Below are positions 4,448 through 30,956 of a stretch of 64,000 nucleotides of DNA, one piece after another. Made by a program: the position numbers and the translations under genes. The notes under the pieces are model-generated. The model saw only the letters and a list, made by a program, of their open reading frames with translations, did no database searches and was not told where the DNA came from. Source of the DNA: Dictyostelium discoideum (taxonomy: Eukaryota); contig CM000152.2 in NCBI GenBank assembly GCA_000004695.1, positions 3,072,001 to 3,136,000 on the forward strand, given 5' to 3'. Numbering within the stretch: the stretch's first letter is position 1; every line of letters starts with the position of its first letter.

Positions 4448-5678
4448 TTATCTTTTTGAAAAATTACCATTAAAATAAAAAAATGAATCAGAATAAAATG
4501 ATAAATAGTTAAAGTAATTTGTAGATTGGAATGTATAAATAATGTTAAAATCATTTTGTAAATCAATGAATTTATAGGTAACTTGTGAATTATTGATGTC
4601 ATTACCACCATCCATAATCATTAAATAATTAAAATCTGGTGAAAAGAAATAAGGTGTAAATTCAAGTGAAATTCCTGTAGTATTGAATGTAATTAATGTT
4701 GTTACTTGACTATTTTCTAAATTAAATTGATGAATTGAATAACTATTTCCAGACTCGTCATTGGAAATATAATAAACAGTTCCTGAGATTACGAATAATT
4801 CACCGCCATATTTTGAATATGGAAGATTTGAAGTTGGAATTTTATAAGTTTCAATATTCGTTACTTTACCATTCACAATTGGTGTATCAATTGATGTTAA
4901 ATATGGTGTTGCATTATCACCATTACCATAATAAATGAAATACATTTTATTATTTATTGAATCGTAACTTGAAAATACTGTAACTGATGAATTATAATCT
5001 GGTAATTCAATTTGAATTAAGTTACTAATAAAAATAAAAAATTAATAAAAATAAATTAATAAAAAAATAACAACAATTTTTTAAAAAAAAAAAAATTATA
5101 ATTTTATATGTAATTACAGTAAATGAGAATTAAAATCCCAATTTGAAAGTGTAAGATCAGGTAATGAACTTGAATAATCAATAGTTGGAATATAGAAATC
5201 GTTCCCGATTTGAATATATTTTTGATCAGGATTTGAACTTGTTAGATCAACATCAACAACTGGTTTAGACATAGTTGAGAATTGATTACTTTGAAAATTA
5301 TAATCAACTGTTACAAAAAATGTTGGTCCTCCATCCTTTTGTTGATAACTTGATAAAGTTGTAAACTAATATTGAAAAAAAAAAAAATTATTAAATTGTT
5401 AATTTTTTAAAAAAAAAATTTTATTTGGAAATTATAATAATAATAATAATAATAATTACAGTTTGATCAACTAATGAAGAAATATATTTAACAGAAAGTT
5501 GTAAATTTTTTTTACCAGCTTGAATTAAGGGTAATGTATTATTAAAAACTAAATCACCAGTATTAATATCAATCATCATGAATGTATTATCATTAGTGAA
5601 AGTATATATGTATTGGCTTTGACTGTCTACAAAGAATGTGATTAATAAGATTTGCAAGATAATAAATAATATTTTCAT
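4448..5678 (-). CDS. Secreted hypothetical protein, 347 aa. Exons on the minus strand: 5678..5460, 5365..5118, 5024..4448.
   Basis: An N-terminal signal peptide (MKILFIILQILLITFFVDSQS) is present. Two AT-rich introns have GTAATT donors and AG acceptors. Phases fit (219+248+577 = 1044 nt) and the stop is at 4448. No similarity I recognise. Confidence 0.6.
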
Positions 5679-6455
5679 TTTTAGGTTATTTAATTAACAA
5701 AACGAAAAAAAAAAAAAAAAATAAAAAAAAAAAAATAAAAAAAATAATAAAAAAAAAATAAAACTTTTGGAAAAAAAAAAAAAAAAAATCTAACAAAAAC
5801 CATGGAATGACAACATTTCATAAATATCTTTTTATTTTTTATTTTTTTTTTTTTTTTCAAAAAATAATTGTCATAAATTTTAGTCCACAAATTATATTAT
5901 GCTGAAAAAAAAAGAATTCTTTTTTTTCCACTTGGATTATTATTCAATTATAACAATATTTATACATTTATATTTTTTTTTTTTTTTTTATTTTTTTTTT
6001 TTAACATTATTTTTAGAATTGTTGCATTTATTTTTTTTTTTTTTTATTTTTATTTTACATTTATTTTTTTTTTTTTATTTTTATTTTAATGGGTTGGGGG
6101 TTAATCAGTTATTTTAATTCATTAATCTCACACTGAAAATTAAAAAAAAAAAATAAAAAAATAAAAAATAAGTGTTGATTTTAATTATAAAAAAAATAAA
6201 AAATAAATGTTGATTTTAATTATAAAATTTTAAATGGAAATATCCTAATGTTTTTTTAATTTTTTTTTGGAAACAAAAAGAATTTTGAAATGTTTTCAGC
6301 AATTTCAATTGTTTTTTTTTATTTTTTTTTATTTTTTTTATTTTTTTTTATTTTTATTTTATTTTATTTTTTTTTTTATTTTTTTTTTTTCAGTTTTAAA
6401 AAAAAACTATTTTTCTTTTTTTTTTTTTTTTTTTACAATTTATTATTTTTGGAAA

Positions 6456-7770
6456 ATGTCAACCAAATCTATTGTTTTATTTGTTTTATTAGCAGTTGCA
6501 ATTGTCTCTGGTGCACATCAATCATGTGTTAAGAGAGTAAATGCACCAACCTCAATTATTAAATCACAACTCCCAAGTGAATATATCGATGAAGATACTT
6601 TACCAACTCAATATGAGTATGTTTTATTACTTAATGAATAATAAATGATTATTATATAAGGTTTTTACAAGTTTCTTTGATTATTCTAATGTTTTATAAT
6701 TTTTTTTTTTTTTTTTTTTTTACCCTAAAATAGTTGGAGAAATATTTCAGGTTCATCATACATCACTATTACCCGTAATCAACATGTAATTATCATCACA
6801 TATATATATATTTATATCCTTTTTCTTATTTTTACAAATTATTAACATACTTCTATAGTTACCACAATGTATGTAATAGGTTTTTTAGGTTTATTTTTAG
6901 GTTTATTATAGGATTTTTAGGATTTTTTATTTGTATTTTTTTAAAAGGATTTCAAGAAAAACAAACAATTAACATTAAAATTTTATTTAATTTTATTTAT
7001 TATTTTGAAAAATTCATTTAGATTGCGGTAGTTGTTGGGCTCATGTAGGTATTTTATTTTAATATTGTTTTAATTCATTTGATTTATAATGATATTAACT
7101 GTTTATTACTATTTATTATTATTGTTTTATTTTAGGGTACCACATCAGCTTTAGGTGATCGTATTAAAATCGGTCGTAAAGGTACTTTCCCAGAAGTTGT
7201 TCTTGCCCCACAAGTTTTATTAAACTGTGCTGGTCCAGATAATACCTGTGGTAAGTAATATGTTTTTTAAAAATAAATTTTATATTAGTAAATGATATCA
7301 TTTACTAATCATTATAAAAATAAAAAATAAAAAATAAAAAATAAAAAATAAAAAATAAAAAATAAAATAAAATAAAATAAAATAAAATAAAATAAAATAA
7401 AAATAAAAAAGATGGTGGTGATCCAACTGAAGCATACGCCTATATGGCCGCTAAAGGTATCACTGATGAAACTTGTGCTCCATATGAAGCAATTGATAAT
7501 GAATGTAATGCTGAAGGTATTTGCAAAAACTGTAACTTTGATTTATCAAACCCAACTGCTGATTGTTTCGCTCAACCAACTTATACTACTTATTTCGTTG
7601 AAGAACACGGTCAAGTTAATGGCTCAGTTGCTATGATGCAAGAAATTTTCGCTCGTGGTCCAATTGCCTGTGGTATGGAAGGTAAATATCAATTTATATT
7701 TTAAAAAATTACTATTATTATTTTATTATTATTTATTTTTCAAATCCAAGCAAAAAAAAATATTAATTAA

Positions 7771-7827
<57 letters not shown>

Positions 7828-8086
7828 TCAAAATTAAATAGTTACTGATGCATTCGAATCATACACAAGTGGTGTTTTCACCTCATCAGTTGGTTCAACT
7901 GGTGAAATTAATCACGAAATCTCAATCATTGGTTGGGGTACTGAAAATGGTGTTGACTATTGGATTGGTCGTAACTCATGGGGTACATATTTTGGTGAAT
8001 TAGGTTTCTTTAGAATTCAACGTGGTATTGATCTTTTATCAATTGAAAGTGCTTGCGATTGGGCTGTTCCAAAGAACTTAGAATAA
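6456..8086 (+). CDS. ctsZ: Cathepsin Z/X-like papain-family cysteine protease, 291 aa. Seven exons: 6456..6616, 6734..6785, 6859..6868, 7022..7044, 7136..7250, 7412..7681, 7842..8086.
   Basis: There is a signal peptide (MSTKSIVLFVLLAVAIVSGA). The spliced product reads [50 protein letters not shown] ... GDPTEAYAYMAAKGITDETC ... ACGMEVTDAFESYTSGVF ... NHEISIIGWG ... WIGRNSWG. That is colinear with human cathepsin Z, including the catalytic Cys, His and Asn regions and the HIP-type mini-loop. All junctions use GT..AG and phases are consistent (876 nt in total). The Dictyostelium gene symbol is assumed from the family. Confidence 0.85.
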
Positions 8087-8608
8087 AAAAACATCTAAAA
8101 TAATAAAAAATAATAAAAAAAATAAAAAAAAATATTAGTGTGTTATTACAATAATTTTTAAAAATCATTTACCAATCTATTCTTTTTTTTTTTTTTTTTT
8201 TTTAATTTTTTTTTTTAAAAAAGGTCTTTTGTGTTTATTTTTTTACAAGTTCACAAAAATGGTTAAATTAGTAACTGAGATATATTTTTTATTTAATTGG
8301 TGGTTCTTTTTATTATTTTTTTTTTATTTGAATAAATTTAAAATTAAAAAAATTAAATTTTATTTTAACAAATATAACACGTAAATATAATATATGTTTT
8401 GTTTAAAAATTAAAAAAGAAATATGTTAATAGATTTTCAAATAATTTTTTTTAATATTCTCATTATATTTTTTTCTTTTTTATTAATATTTTGTCAAATT
8501 AAATTCAATTTTAAAATTAACCACTTCTTTTATTAGTATTTTTTTCAAAATATTAAAACTTTGGTTTATAACTGAAGTTAATTTTTTTTAAAAAATAATA
8601 AAAAAATA

Positions 8609-8616
8609 CCCACAAA
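8609..8616 (+). promoter_or_regulatory. DUSE-like motif ACCCACAA (the Dictyostelium upstream sequence element found before small ncRNA genes), in the intergenic region between ctsZ and the monooxygenase gene.
   Basis: Exact match to the [A/T]CCCA[C/T]AA consensus as I remember it. The downstream ~150 nt has no obvious structured RNA, so this is weak. Confidence 0.2.
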
Positions 8617-9000
8617 AAAGAACCAAAAATTTAAAAAAATATAATTAAAAATTAATTTCTAAATATATCAAACTAATTTTCATTTACAATTAAAATTTAA
8701 AATCCTTAAATAAAGATATATAAACGATTAGTTTCAATTTTATTAAATTTTTTTATTTTTGTTTTTTTAAATTTAATTATATTCAGTTTCTAAATTTGGA
8801 AACATATAAAATCTTAATTAAATGACATTATTAAATGACATTAAAACATCATAACTACAATATTCTTTTAATGATCACATAATTCTAGATTTTTTATTTT
8901 TTTTTTTTTTATATTATTTTTTTTTTTTTTTTAAATTTCACCACATAAATGGAAATTCTAATTCTAGAATTTATAAAAGTGATAAGGTTTTTAATAGTGA

Positions 9001-9324: not shown

Positions 9325-10617
9325 ATGAATAAAAATATTAAAGATATGAAAATTGTAATTTGTGGAGGCGGAATGAGTGGCTTGGGATTGGCAAGAGTAC
9401 TTCAATTAAAAGGTTGTAAAAATGTTAAAGTTTATGAGAGATCAACTCATAAATATTCAAGATTACAAGGTTCGTCATTAGATTTACATGCAAAACTTGG
9501 TCAAAAATTAATTATAGCAGCAGGTTTACAAGAACAATTTGCAGCCTTTTCAAGACCAGATGGAGAATGTTTTTCATTTTGTGATAAAAGTGGAAATATT
9601 AATGTCAGAAAACCATATTTAAAGATTGCTAGTAAAAGACCAGAAATTGATAGAGGTGATTTACGTGATATCCTTATGGATTCATTGTTACCAGATACTA
9701 TCGAATGGGATTATCATTTCAAATCATTGAAACAAATCGAAAATGATCAAATTGAATTAACATTTACAAATAACGATGGTACAATTGTTAGAGATGCCGT
9801 CATTGCAGATTTGGTTATTGGATGTGATGGTGTTCATTCAAAAGTTAGAAAATATGTTACTCTTGATCAATTTAAACCAGAATATATGGGAATTACAATG
9901 ATTGAAGGTGAAATTACTGATGCAAAGAATTCATGTCCTGAAATTTATAATTTAGTTAATCAAGGTTTAATGTTTGTTATGGAAGATGGAATTGTAATGT
10001 TAGCTCAACAAAAAACAGATGGAAATATTGTATTTAGTTTTGCTCAAAAAGTTGAAAAAGATTGGATAAATAATCAAGGTTTTAATTTATCAGTTAATTC
10101 ATCATCATCTGATGATGATGTTAAAAACTACTTAAAAAATAAATTAATTCCATCATGGTCACCAATATTCCATAGATTAATTGATTCATCAATAACACCA
10201 TTCAAACCAAGAGTTTTATATCGTGCACCAATTAATCAAGAGTGGAAATCTCAATCAAATATTACAATAATCGGGGATGCAGCCCATTCAATTTCTCCAT
10301 TTGCTGGATTAGGTTGTAACATTGCATTATATGATTCTTTTGAATTGGCAAATATTTTAACAAAAGATATCGATTGTACAACTCAAAAACCATTATTGGA
10401 AAAAATTCAAATCTTTGAAAAAAGTATGTTAAATAGATGGAGAACTGCAGCAAAAGAAACAATGGAAAATGAAAATTCTGTTTTCTTACCAAATGGTATA
10501 GATGCTTTAAAAAAAAGAATTGGTGGAATTTATTATTATTTTAATTGTATTTTATCAGTAAGCAAAGTTGTGAATTATATTAATTATTTTACTGATTTAA
10601 TTTTATTAACTAAATAA
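9325..10617 (+). CDS. FAD-dependent aromatic-ring monooxygenase/hydroxylase family protein (salicylate hydroxylase / UbiH-like), 430 aa.
   Basis: N-terminal dinucleotide-binding motif (KIVICGGGMSGLGLA), a DG box (GCDGVHSKVR) and a C-terminal FAD motif (GDAAHSISPFAGLGCNIALYDSFELA). It is a single ORF. The extreme C-terminus (hydrophobic tail) could hide a short terminal intron. Confidence 0.75.
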   Translation: MNKNIKDMKIVICGGGMSGLGLARVLQLKGCKNVKVYERSTHKYSRLQGSSLDLHAKLGQKLIIAAGLQEQFAAFSRPDGECFSFCDKSGNINVRKPYLKIASKRPEIDRGDLRDILMDSLLPDTIEWDYHFKSLKQIENDQIELTFTNNDGTIVRDAVIADLVIGCDGVHSKVRKYVTLDQFKPEYMGITMIEGEITDAKNSCPEIYNLVNQGLMFVMEDGIVMLAQQKTDGNIVFSFAQKVEKDWINNQGFNLSVNSSSSDDDVKNYLKNKLIPSWSPIFHRLIDSSITPFKPRVLYRAPINQEWKSQSNITIIGDAAHSISPFAGLGCNIALYDSFELANILTKDIDCTTQKPLLEKIQIFEKSMLNRWRTAAKETMENENSVFLPNGIDALKKRIGGIYYYFNCILSVSKVVNYINYFTDLILLTK

Positions 10618-10695: not shown

Positions 10696-11842
10696 TTATA
10701 TTTTATATAAGTTTAAACAATTTGTTTTAAAAATTTTAAAAGCAAATTCTTTTGATTCTTTTAAAGTTATTTCATTATTTTTTAAAGATTTTGAAAGAAC
10801 TTTGAATATTATATTTCTTGCCCAAATTGAACCGAGATAGAATAATTCAGGTATATAATGACTATCAGAACTATAAATGATTTTATCAATTGGAGCTAAT
10901 TCTAACATTGATTGAATTGAATTTTTCATACCACTTATTGAGAGGAAAGGAATTGCTAAACCAATATCAACATATACATTTGGATAAACCCAACTTAAAA
11001 ATCCTGCTTCCCTAAAAAATGGATAAGAGCAATGTAATAATACAATTGGAACATTTGGATATGATTCAATTAATGGTTTCAATAATAATGGATTTGATAA
11101 TTCTAATGATAAATCTGAATCACCAAATCCAGTATGAATTTGAATTGGCATTGGTTTTGATAATGTTGATGAAACTCCCATTGCAATATGAATGAAAAAA
11201 TTAATCATTGTTTTATTTTCAATTCTATAATTAGTTTGATTGATTGTTGTTATAATATTACCACTACTATTATTAATATTATTATTATTATTATTATTAT
11301 TACTATTATTAATTTGAATTTCATTAATTACTTTTTCAAATTCTTCTAAAACTTTTTGAATTGATGGATTTTCAACACCTAAACCACATCTATACGCAAC
11401 AATACTTTTTAAACCAATTACTTTAATATCATCAATTGGATTATCAATTGTATCTCTAAATAGTTTTTCAACGTATGTTTTCCAAACAAAAAATGACATA
11501 CCATTGGTTTTTGCATCTATTAAACTTTTCTCTAATAATGTTTCCAATCTAATTACTTTGTAGACCTTTGTAAATTGTGAATGCCAACTATTTGATTTCA
11601 ATGGTAACTCTACAGAGTTTATTGAGAATTTTAATGAATCATCTAAAATTATTGCTTCAATATTTGATCTTGTAAAAACTCCTCTCATTATATTATCTGT
11701 ACCAATTTCATTTCTTTTCATATTTATTTCATGTTCAATTATATTTTCATCAATCTCTCCATTTTCTTCCTGTTCTTCTATAAAATCTTTACCATAATAA
11801 AATTTATAAATATCTTTTATACTTCTTTTAAATATCAATGTA

Positions 11843-30883: not shown

Positions 30884-30956
30884 CACCCATTGTGGGTCTC
30901 GATCCCACGACCTGCAGCTTAGAAGGCTGCCGCAATTCCAACTTTGCTAAACGGGC
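30884..30956 (-). tRNA. tRNA-Arg, anticodon UCU, 73 nt, no intron and no encoded CCA.
   Basis: The minus-strand cloverleaf is GCCCGTT-TA-GCAA-AGTTGGAA-TTGC-G-GCAGC-CTTCTAA-GCTGC-AGGTC-GTGGG-ATCGAGA-CCCAC-AATGGGT-G. The A box (TAGCAAAGTTGG) is good and the anticodon loop is canonical (U33, TCT, A37). Two features are atypical. The acceptor stem has two G·U pairs (1-72 and 5-68). The T-loop is ATCGAGA (A54, A60) rather than TTCGAAT. Confidence 0.7.

Follow-up and report, generated by a model that had tools for sequence, protein, structure and literature searches.

Genes of Dictyostelium discoideum carry few introns: one survey counted about 17,300 genome-wide, with a median length of 103 nt (PMC2483917), and D. 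giganteum has been reported at 1.96 introns per gene. Within a 64,000-nt window of D. discoideum DNA, an initial annotation, which fairly took the paucity of introns as its premise, proposed a papain-family gene divided into seven exons, two of which, of only 10 and 23 nt, encode parts of the active site. This locus raises the question of whether exons of such a size are real and needed to encode the conserved protein, and of how introns came to be crowded around the active site.

Gene model and identity of the locus

The proposed split into seven exons, with the 10- and 23-nt exons among them, proved correct base for base (Table 1). All six introns start with GT and end with AG, and the exons sum to 876 nt, in frame, encoding 291 amino acids before a TAA stop. 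The G+C content is 30-48% in the exons and 6-16% in the introns, a contrast typical of an AT-rich social-amoeba genome. Three of the six introns fall inside 33 coding nucleotides around the active site; across the micro-exon junctions the protein reads RNQH/LPQ(Y)/, followed by the residues of exons 4 and 5. The assignment of Leu-Pro-Gln to exon 3 was confirmed, as was that of CGSCWAH to exon 4, which reads in full (Y)CGSCWAH and contains the catalytic Cys79.

Table 1. Exons, introns, active-site residues and alternative joins of the gene, in window coordinates
Feature	Position	Strand	Length (nt)	Human cathepsin X	Description
Exon 1	6456-6616	+	161		ATG, predicted signal peptide, short pro-region with Cys24 (HQSCVKR)
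Exon 1 end	6616	+			phase 2, within Asp of DWRN
Intron 1	6617-6733	+	117		GTATGT..AG; TCTAAT branch-like motif at -49
Exon 2	6734-6785	+	52		starts inside the split codon (D)
Gln70	6780-6782	+		Gln22	oxyanion hole
His71	6783-6785	+		His23	final codon of exon 2
Intron 2	6786-6858	+	73		GTAATT..AG; TTAAC at -17
Exon 3	6859-6868	+	10		micro-exon TTACCACAAT; three codons and first base of Tyr75
Leu72-Pro73-Gln74	6859-6867	+		Ile24-Pro25-Gln26	within the 10-nt exon
Tyr75	6868 / 7022-7023	+		Tyr27	split codon
Intron 3	6869-7021	+	153		GTATGT..AG; phase 1 in Tyr codon; TTAAC 6969-6973
Exon 4	7022-7044	+	23		micro-exon ATTGCGGTAGTTGTTGGGCTCAT; (Y)CGSCWAH
Cys79	7033-7035	+		Cys31	catalytic
Intron 4	7045-7135	+	91		GTAGGT..AG, phase 0; conserved TTAAC 7095-7099
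Exon 5	7136-7250	+	115		coding ends ...DNTC
Intron 5	7251-7411	+	161		TACTAAT at -108, then A-rich AAAAT-type repeat 7316-7410
Exon 6	7412-7681	+	270		
Intron 6	7682-7841	+	160		perfect (ATT)19 microsatellite 7771-7827
Exon 7	7842-8086	+	245		TAA 8084-8086
His235	7913-7915	+		His180	catalytic
Asn255	7973-7975	+		Asn200	catalytic
Join 1	6750/7022	+			stop-free, in frame; ...NISDCGSCWAH
Join 2	6774/7022	+			stop-free, in frame; ...ITITHCGSCWAH
Join 3	6785/7136	+			stop-free, in frame; ...RNQHGTTS; both micro-exons skipped, 33 nt total

An exact-sequence look-up found that the spliced 291-amino-acid product is identical to a protein of D. discoideum AX4, EAL67320.1 (labeled "peptidase C1A family protein"), also known as UniProt Q54VR1 (labeled "cathepsin X"). 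Three newer assemblies of D. discoideum contain the same protein, and D. firmibasis, D. citrinum and D. dimigraforme have nearly identical ones. The seven-exon model is the deposited annotation of DDB_G0280187, public since the AX4 genome, and it was re-derived here rather than newly found. We conclude that positions 6456-8086 on the plus strand very probably represent DDB_G0280187, predicted to encode a 291-amino-acid secreted or lysosomal cysteine carboxypeptidase of the cathepsin X/Z type from seven exons, with micro-exons that would be included constitutively. Biologically the gene is ordinary: a conserved lysosomal or secreted protease of the cathepsin X type that had already been catalogued and seen in proteomic data. 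What is useful for annotation is that reading the raw sequence alone recovered a gene model that is both difficult and correct.

The initial annotation had called this a cathepsin Z gene, which holds for the type of enzyme (best structural match 1DEU, E=1.5e-65) but not for the gene that bears the name. The supplement of a study of the bacteriolytic fraction (PMC7886984) assigns ctsZ to Q54R55 and lists DDB_G0280187 separately as Q54VR1, "cathepsin Z-like"; mass spectrometry found the two products in that fraction, which is evidence at the protein level. The product encoded in the window is Q54VR1, not Q54R55. The two share the organism and the family annotation (peptidase C1A, cathepsin Z type; Q54R55 is a "cathepsin Z precursor") but are separate genes and proteins, and DDB_G0280187 is a paralogue of ctsZ, not ctsZ itself. 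An alignment of the "dictyBase cathepsin Z protein" to this locus, as had been proposed for checking the model, would therefore align a paralogue.

The exon lengths are constant between D. discoideum strains and the intron lengths vary: intron 5 measures 161 versus 96 nt (L001, L003), and intron 6 measures 160, 219 or 177 nt depending on the strain (L001 and L003 included). In L002, a 6.43-Mb chromosome (GCA_054883475.1), the lengths of all exons and introns are identical to those in the window. The surroundings of the gene are syntenic with L001-L003. Upstream, on the minus strand, lies a gene for a 314-345-aa protein without a Pfam match; downstream lie a squalene-epoxidase-like FAD_binding_3 protein of about 430 aa (9325-10617, plus strand) and then an Amidohydro_2 protein of 440 aa (10696-11838, minus strand). 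The sole RNA family match in the window is a tRNA-Arg with anticodon TCT (30884-30956, minus strand).

The cathepsin X-type active site and its mini-loop

The protein matched the Pfam family Peptidase_C1 (PF00112) over residues 49-280 (E=5.1e-51, 174 bits against a cut-off of 20.7), so that the papain-family profile (MEROPS C1A) covers the whole mature domain. The closest solved structures were human procathepsin X (1DEU) and cathepsin X (1EF7, E=9.6e-63), and the next match after these was dipeptidyl peptidase I (3e-33). Identity to human cathepsin X was 46.7% over 214 residues of the mature domain. The oxyanion Gln and the catalytic Cys, His and Asn all occupy the aligned positions expected of a papain-family enzyme.

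A mark of the cathepsin X/Z subfamily is a mini-loop of three residues inserted between the oxyanion Gln and the catalytic Cys. According to one review (PMC9712828), Ile24, Pro25 and Gln26 form the mini-loop wall of the S2' site, and the substrate carboxylate is docked by His23; a second review (PMC13257197) confirmed the three-residue loop and described a disulfide-tethered prodomain of 38 residues. The mini-loop region of DDB_G0280187 aligns without gaps to that of human cathepsin X (CTSZ; MEROPS C01.013), including the three-residue insertion and the His, and the spacing Q-H-[IL]-P-Q-Y-C-G-S-C is identical in the two proteins, which indicates that both the mini-loop and the carboxylate-docking His are present. 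The claim that the 10-nt exon carries the mini-loop is accordingly right in one respect and too broad in another. Because the loop consists of Ile24-Pro25-Gln26 and His23 is separate from it, the exon encodes exactly the three loop residues and not the key His, whose equivalent ends exon 2.

Other features of the protein can be compared with the human enzyme as follows. The pro-region is likewise short and contains a Cys: about 28 residues separate the predicted signal peptide from the mature LPTQYDW, with Cys24 as the single cysteine. All dictyostelid orthologues keep the surrounding motif in the form [ST]CV.R. Cys24 itself lies before the start of the HMMER alignment to 1DEU. In contrast to human cathepsin X/Z, DDB_G0280187 has Leu in place of Ile24, a 5-residue insertion (FDLSN), a shorter C-terminal region, and no RGD seen in the sequence of the pro-region. 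DDB_G0280187 encodes a complete enzyme of the cathepsin X type, and neither micro-exon can be left out if the conserved protein is to be obtained.

Support for the micro-exons, alternative joins and splicing signals

A homology-guided predictor might force a chance AG..GT segment into a gene model, in which case the micro-exons would be an annotation artefact and the locus a decaying pseudogene or a gene with other junctions. The model does depend on homology-guided reasoning, since plain tblastn missed exon 3 entirely and found exon 4 only at E=2.7; for the same reason the model is hard to find. The placement of both exons was examined by several routes. Exhaustive threading of the 291-aa protein onto positions 5501-9000 by dynamic programming, with GT-AG introns, gave exactly one solution, the seven-exon model, and threading gave the same seven exon lengths, with varying intron lengths, in three other D. 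discoideum strains (L001-L003), D. firmibasis and D. citrinum. In scored spliced alignments (BLOSUM62), residues 1-65 of human cathepsin X, or the matching segment of T. lacteum, which is intron-free there, recovered 6859-6868 as well as 7022-7044 with each of the non-zero intron penalties tried (5 to 40). In the stretch from the exon-2 donor to the exon-4 acceptor, exon 3 is the one stop-free AG..GT segment whose length is 3n+1. A search of both strands of the 64 kb for AG-NTN-CCN-CAR-T-GT returned a single occurrence, compared with 0.02 expected from shuffled sequences; so low a chance frequency of the flanked 10-mer (about 0.02 per 128 kb) argues against an artefact, and the match lies well beyond chance.

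Comparison among genomes argues in the same direction. The 22 alignment columns ATAG-TTACCACAAT-GTATGTAA were invariant in five aligned genomes from three species, whereas introns 2-4 contained many substitutions and indels; in a sixth genome, L002, exon 3 and the sequence downstream of it are the same as in the other five. Exons 2 and 4 differed across the aligned genomes by synonymous changes only, and all seven exons kept an open frame. Exon 3 is bounded by AG and GT, restores the frame and can be placed in a single way, and purifying selection has acted on the exon and its splice sites when compared with the adjoining intron. Adding the annotation of an identical protein in independent assemblies and the detection of the protein by mass spectrometry (PMC7886984 supplement), we regard an artefact as extremely improbable.

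Searches for transcripts returned no direct match to the spliced form. The spliced junction CAACAT-TTACCACAAT-ATTGYGGTAG had 0 matches in the JGI metagenome and metatranscriptome contigs, a 97-aa junction-spanning protein query retrieved no transcript-derived D. discoideum fragment (top identity 73%), and the exact-protein look-up returned genome assemblies only and no RNA-seq contigs. A full-text search found no paper discussing Dictyostelium micro-exons. Like the constitutive micro-exons of animals and plants (about 3-30 nt), exon 3 is internal, coding and tiny, has canonical splice sites next to conserved intron sequence, and escapes ordinary similarity searches. Unlike them, it sits in a genome with few, short introns, and it probably belongs to no neuronal or regulated programme.

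The initial annotation also stated that no in-frame model exists without the micro-exons. This was too strong, because three stop-free, in-frame joins exist (Table 1), but each of them loses essential residues, deleting either the oxyanion Gln together with the mini-loop or the catalytic Cys. The 10-nt exon might be regulated, with some transcripts skipping exon 3 or exons 3 and 4, or using cryptic donors at 6751 or 6775, so that catalytically dead or loop-less in-frame proteins would be made beside the active enzyme. Apart from the existence of the three joins, this scenario draws on the fact that exons 3 and 4 total 33 nt, so that the frame is kept when both are skipped, and on an unusual row of five TAGG motifs just downstream of the micro-exon, which has no counterpart elsewhere in the 64-kb window and is conserved in part. 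Since the three patterns are compatible with the sequence, minor isoforms could be produced. However, every alternative removes residues shared without exception by the dictyostelid orthologues and human. Moreover, Dictyostelium is thought to use mainly intron definition, in which errors would yield retained introns rather than skipped exons. We consider regulation of the exon improbable, and constitutive inclusion of both micro-exons the probable course.

How exons of this size would be spliced can be outlined on the same grounds. Introns of Dictyostelium are short (about 100-150 nt; 73-161 nt here), and splice sites are probably paired across the intron, as described in the intron-definition framework (PMC2397502); exon length would then not be limiting, so that micro-exons could be as small as those observed. 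Each flanking intron would be equipped with a strong 5' site (GTAWGT) and a conserved branch-like motif (TTAAC or CTAAT) of its own. Because 10 nt are too few for the 3' and 5' sites to be occupied simultaneously, introns 2 and 3 are probably removed one after the other. WCTAAY, the published branch consensus of D. discoideum (PMC2483917), is found in introns 1 and 5, and TTAAC is found in introns 2, 3 and 4 at -17, -53 and -41, conserved between species. Although these TTAAC motifs differ from the consensus, they are likely branch sites.

Two further conserved elements flank the 10-nt exon. A 20-nt block in intron 2, TTTTACAAATTATTAACATA (6830-6849), lies just upstream of it and is invariant in three species. 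In intron 3, directly 3' of the exon-3 donor, the five TAGG motifs (6877-6929) lie within 62 nt at a period of about 10 and resemble TTTTTAG/G-like pseudo-acceptors. Nowhere else in the 64 kb, on either strand, do four or more such motifs cluster. The five are identical in all four D. discoideum genomes and partly kept in D. firmibasis and D. citrinum. The row may be a splicing-control element or merely a conserved low-complexity repeat.

Intron positions around the active site in relatives

We threaded annotated orthologues onto their own genomes and counted intron positions from the first base of the NQH Asn codon. The orthologues of P. violaceum, T. lacteum, H. album, A. subglobosum and C. 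fasciculata are 62-72% identical and invariant in the active-site motif ending [SA]CW, but the 10-nt and 23-nt exons of D. discoideum occur in none of the five. The introns near the active site lie at +9, +19 and +42 in the D. discoideum clade, +11 in C. fasciculata, +17 in H. album, -8 and +22 in P. violaceum (with exons of 35 and 30 nt), +45 in T. lacteum and +47 in A. subglobosum. For P. violaceum, a relative is represented by an intron-free, transcript-like environmental contig of 1.1 kb, whose protein is 82% identical to that of P. violaceum; against the P. violaceum genome the contig falls into five aligned blocks, which correspond to the five exons there, including those of 35 and 30 nt. 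The idea that the mini-loop itself arose as this micro-exon was rejected, because animals and every other dictyostelid also possess the loop, there as part of a larger exon.

The position of intron 1 was identical in 7/8 dictyostelid genomes (the exception being T. lacteum). Around the active site, 9/18 of the distinct dictyostelid intron positions in the 714-nt core fell within 56 nt (simulated scan-statistic P about 1.5e-4), and five gaps between neighbouring introns were <= 3 nt (P about 0.004). The positions form three tight groups, +9/+11, +17/+19/+22 and +42/+45/+47. The catalytic Cys and the specificity-determining mini-loop each lie on a micro-exon of their own, and the introns of relatives are 2-5 nt away. 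This pattern fits either an old intron at the downstream edge of the micro-exon that has shifted slightly in some lineages, or a favoured site at which introns were gained more than once; it is relevant to the old debate over intron sliding versus recurrent gain at preferred sites.

A more distant comparison bears on the age of one of these introns. In a cathepsin Z-like gene of Priapulus caudatus, minimum-intron threading placed an intron at CAG T[gtaagt..734..ag]AC TGC, phase 1 in the Tyr codon, exactly the position of intron 3; a first threading was degenerate (exons of 1-2 nt) and was set aside. Since this position is common to an animal, the intron site that bounds the 10-nt exon downstream looks old, and intron 3 may have been present already in the ancestor shared by Amoebozoa and animals. 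Intron 2, which forms the upstream border, was seen in the D. discoideum clade only. Two further homologous loci from ENA metagenomes (L016, L017) were intron-free and thus uninformative on intron age. It is a tentative and rather doubtful reading that the tiny exons are the remnant of an old intron-dense patch at the cathepsin X active site, in which three ancestral introns slid by 2-5 nt and were lost differentially. If this reading is true, the 10-nt exon, whose three full codons are precisely those of the mini-loop, would have existed already in the ancestor of Dictyostelia, and the locus would offer a rare and clean case in which to test intron sliding against repeated gain at a hot spot.

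Two features of the deposited models of relatives are noted here. The predicted proteins of H. album (L008, 1501-3155) and C. fasciculata (L010, 1501-2025) have N-terminal extensions (358 and 321 aa, compared with about 290). Additional exons upstream, together with introns of unusual length (1432 and 470 nt), make up these extensions, and the gene predictions seem to reach too far. In the 388-aa cathepsin Z-like protein of Priapulus caudatus, the N-terminus almost exactly repeats two internal exons (GTTSAIADRIN...ANGPI; L015, 501-1340 versus 4598-5331), which points to a partial tandem duplication or to an artefact of assembly or prediction.
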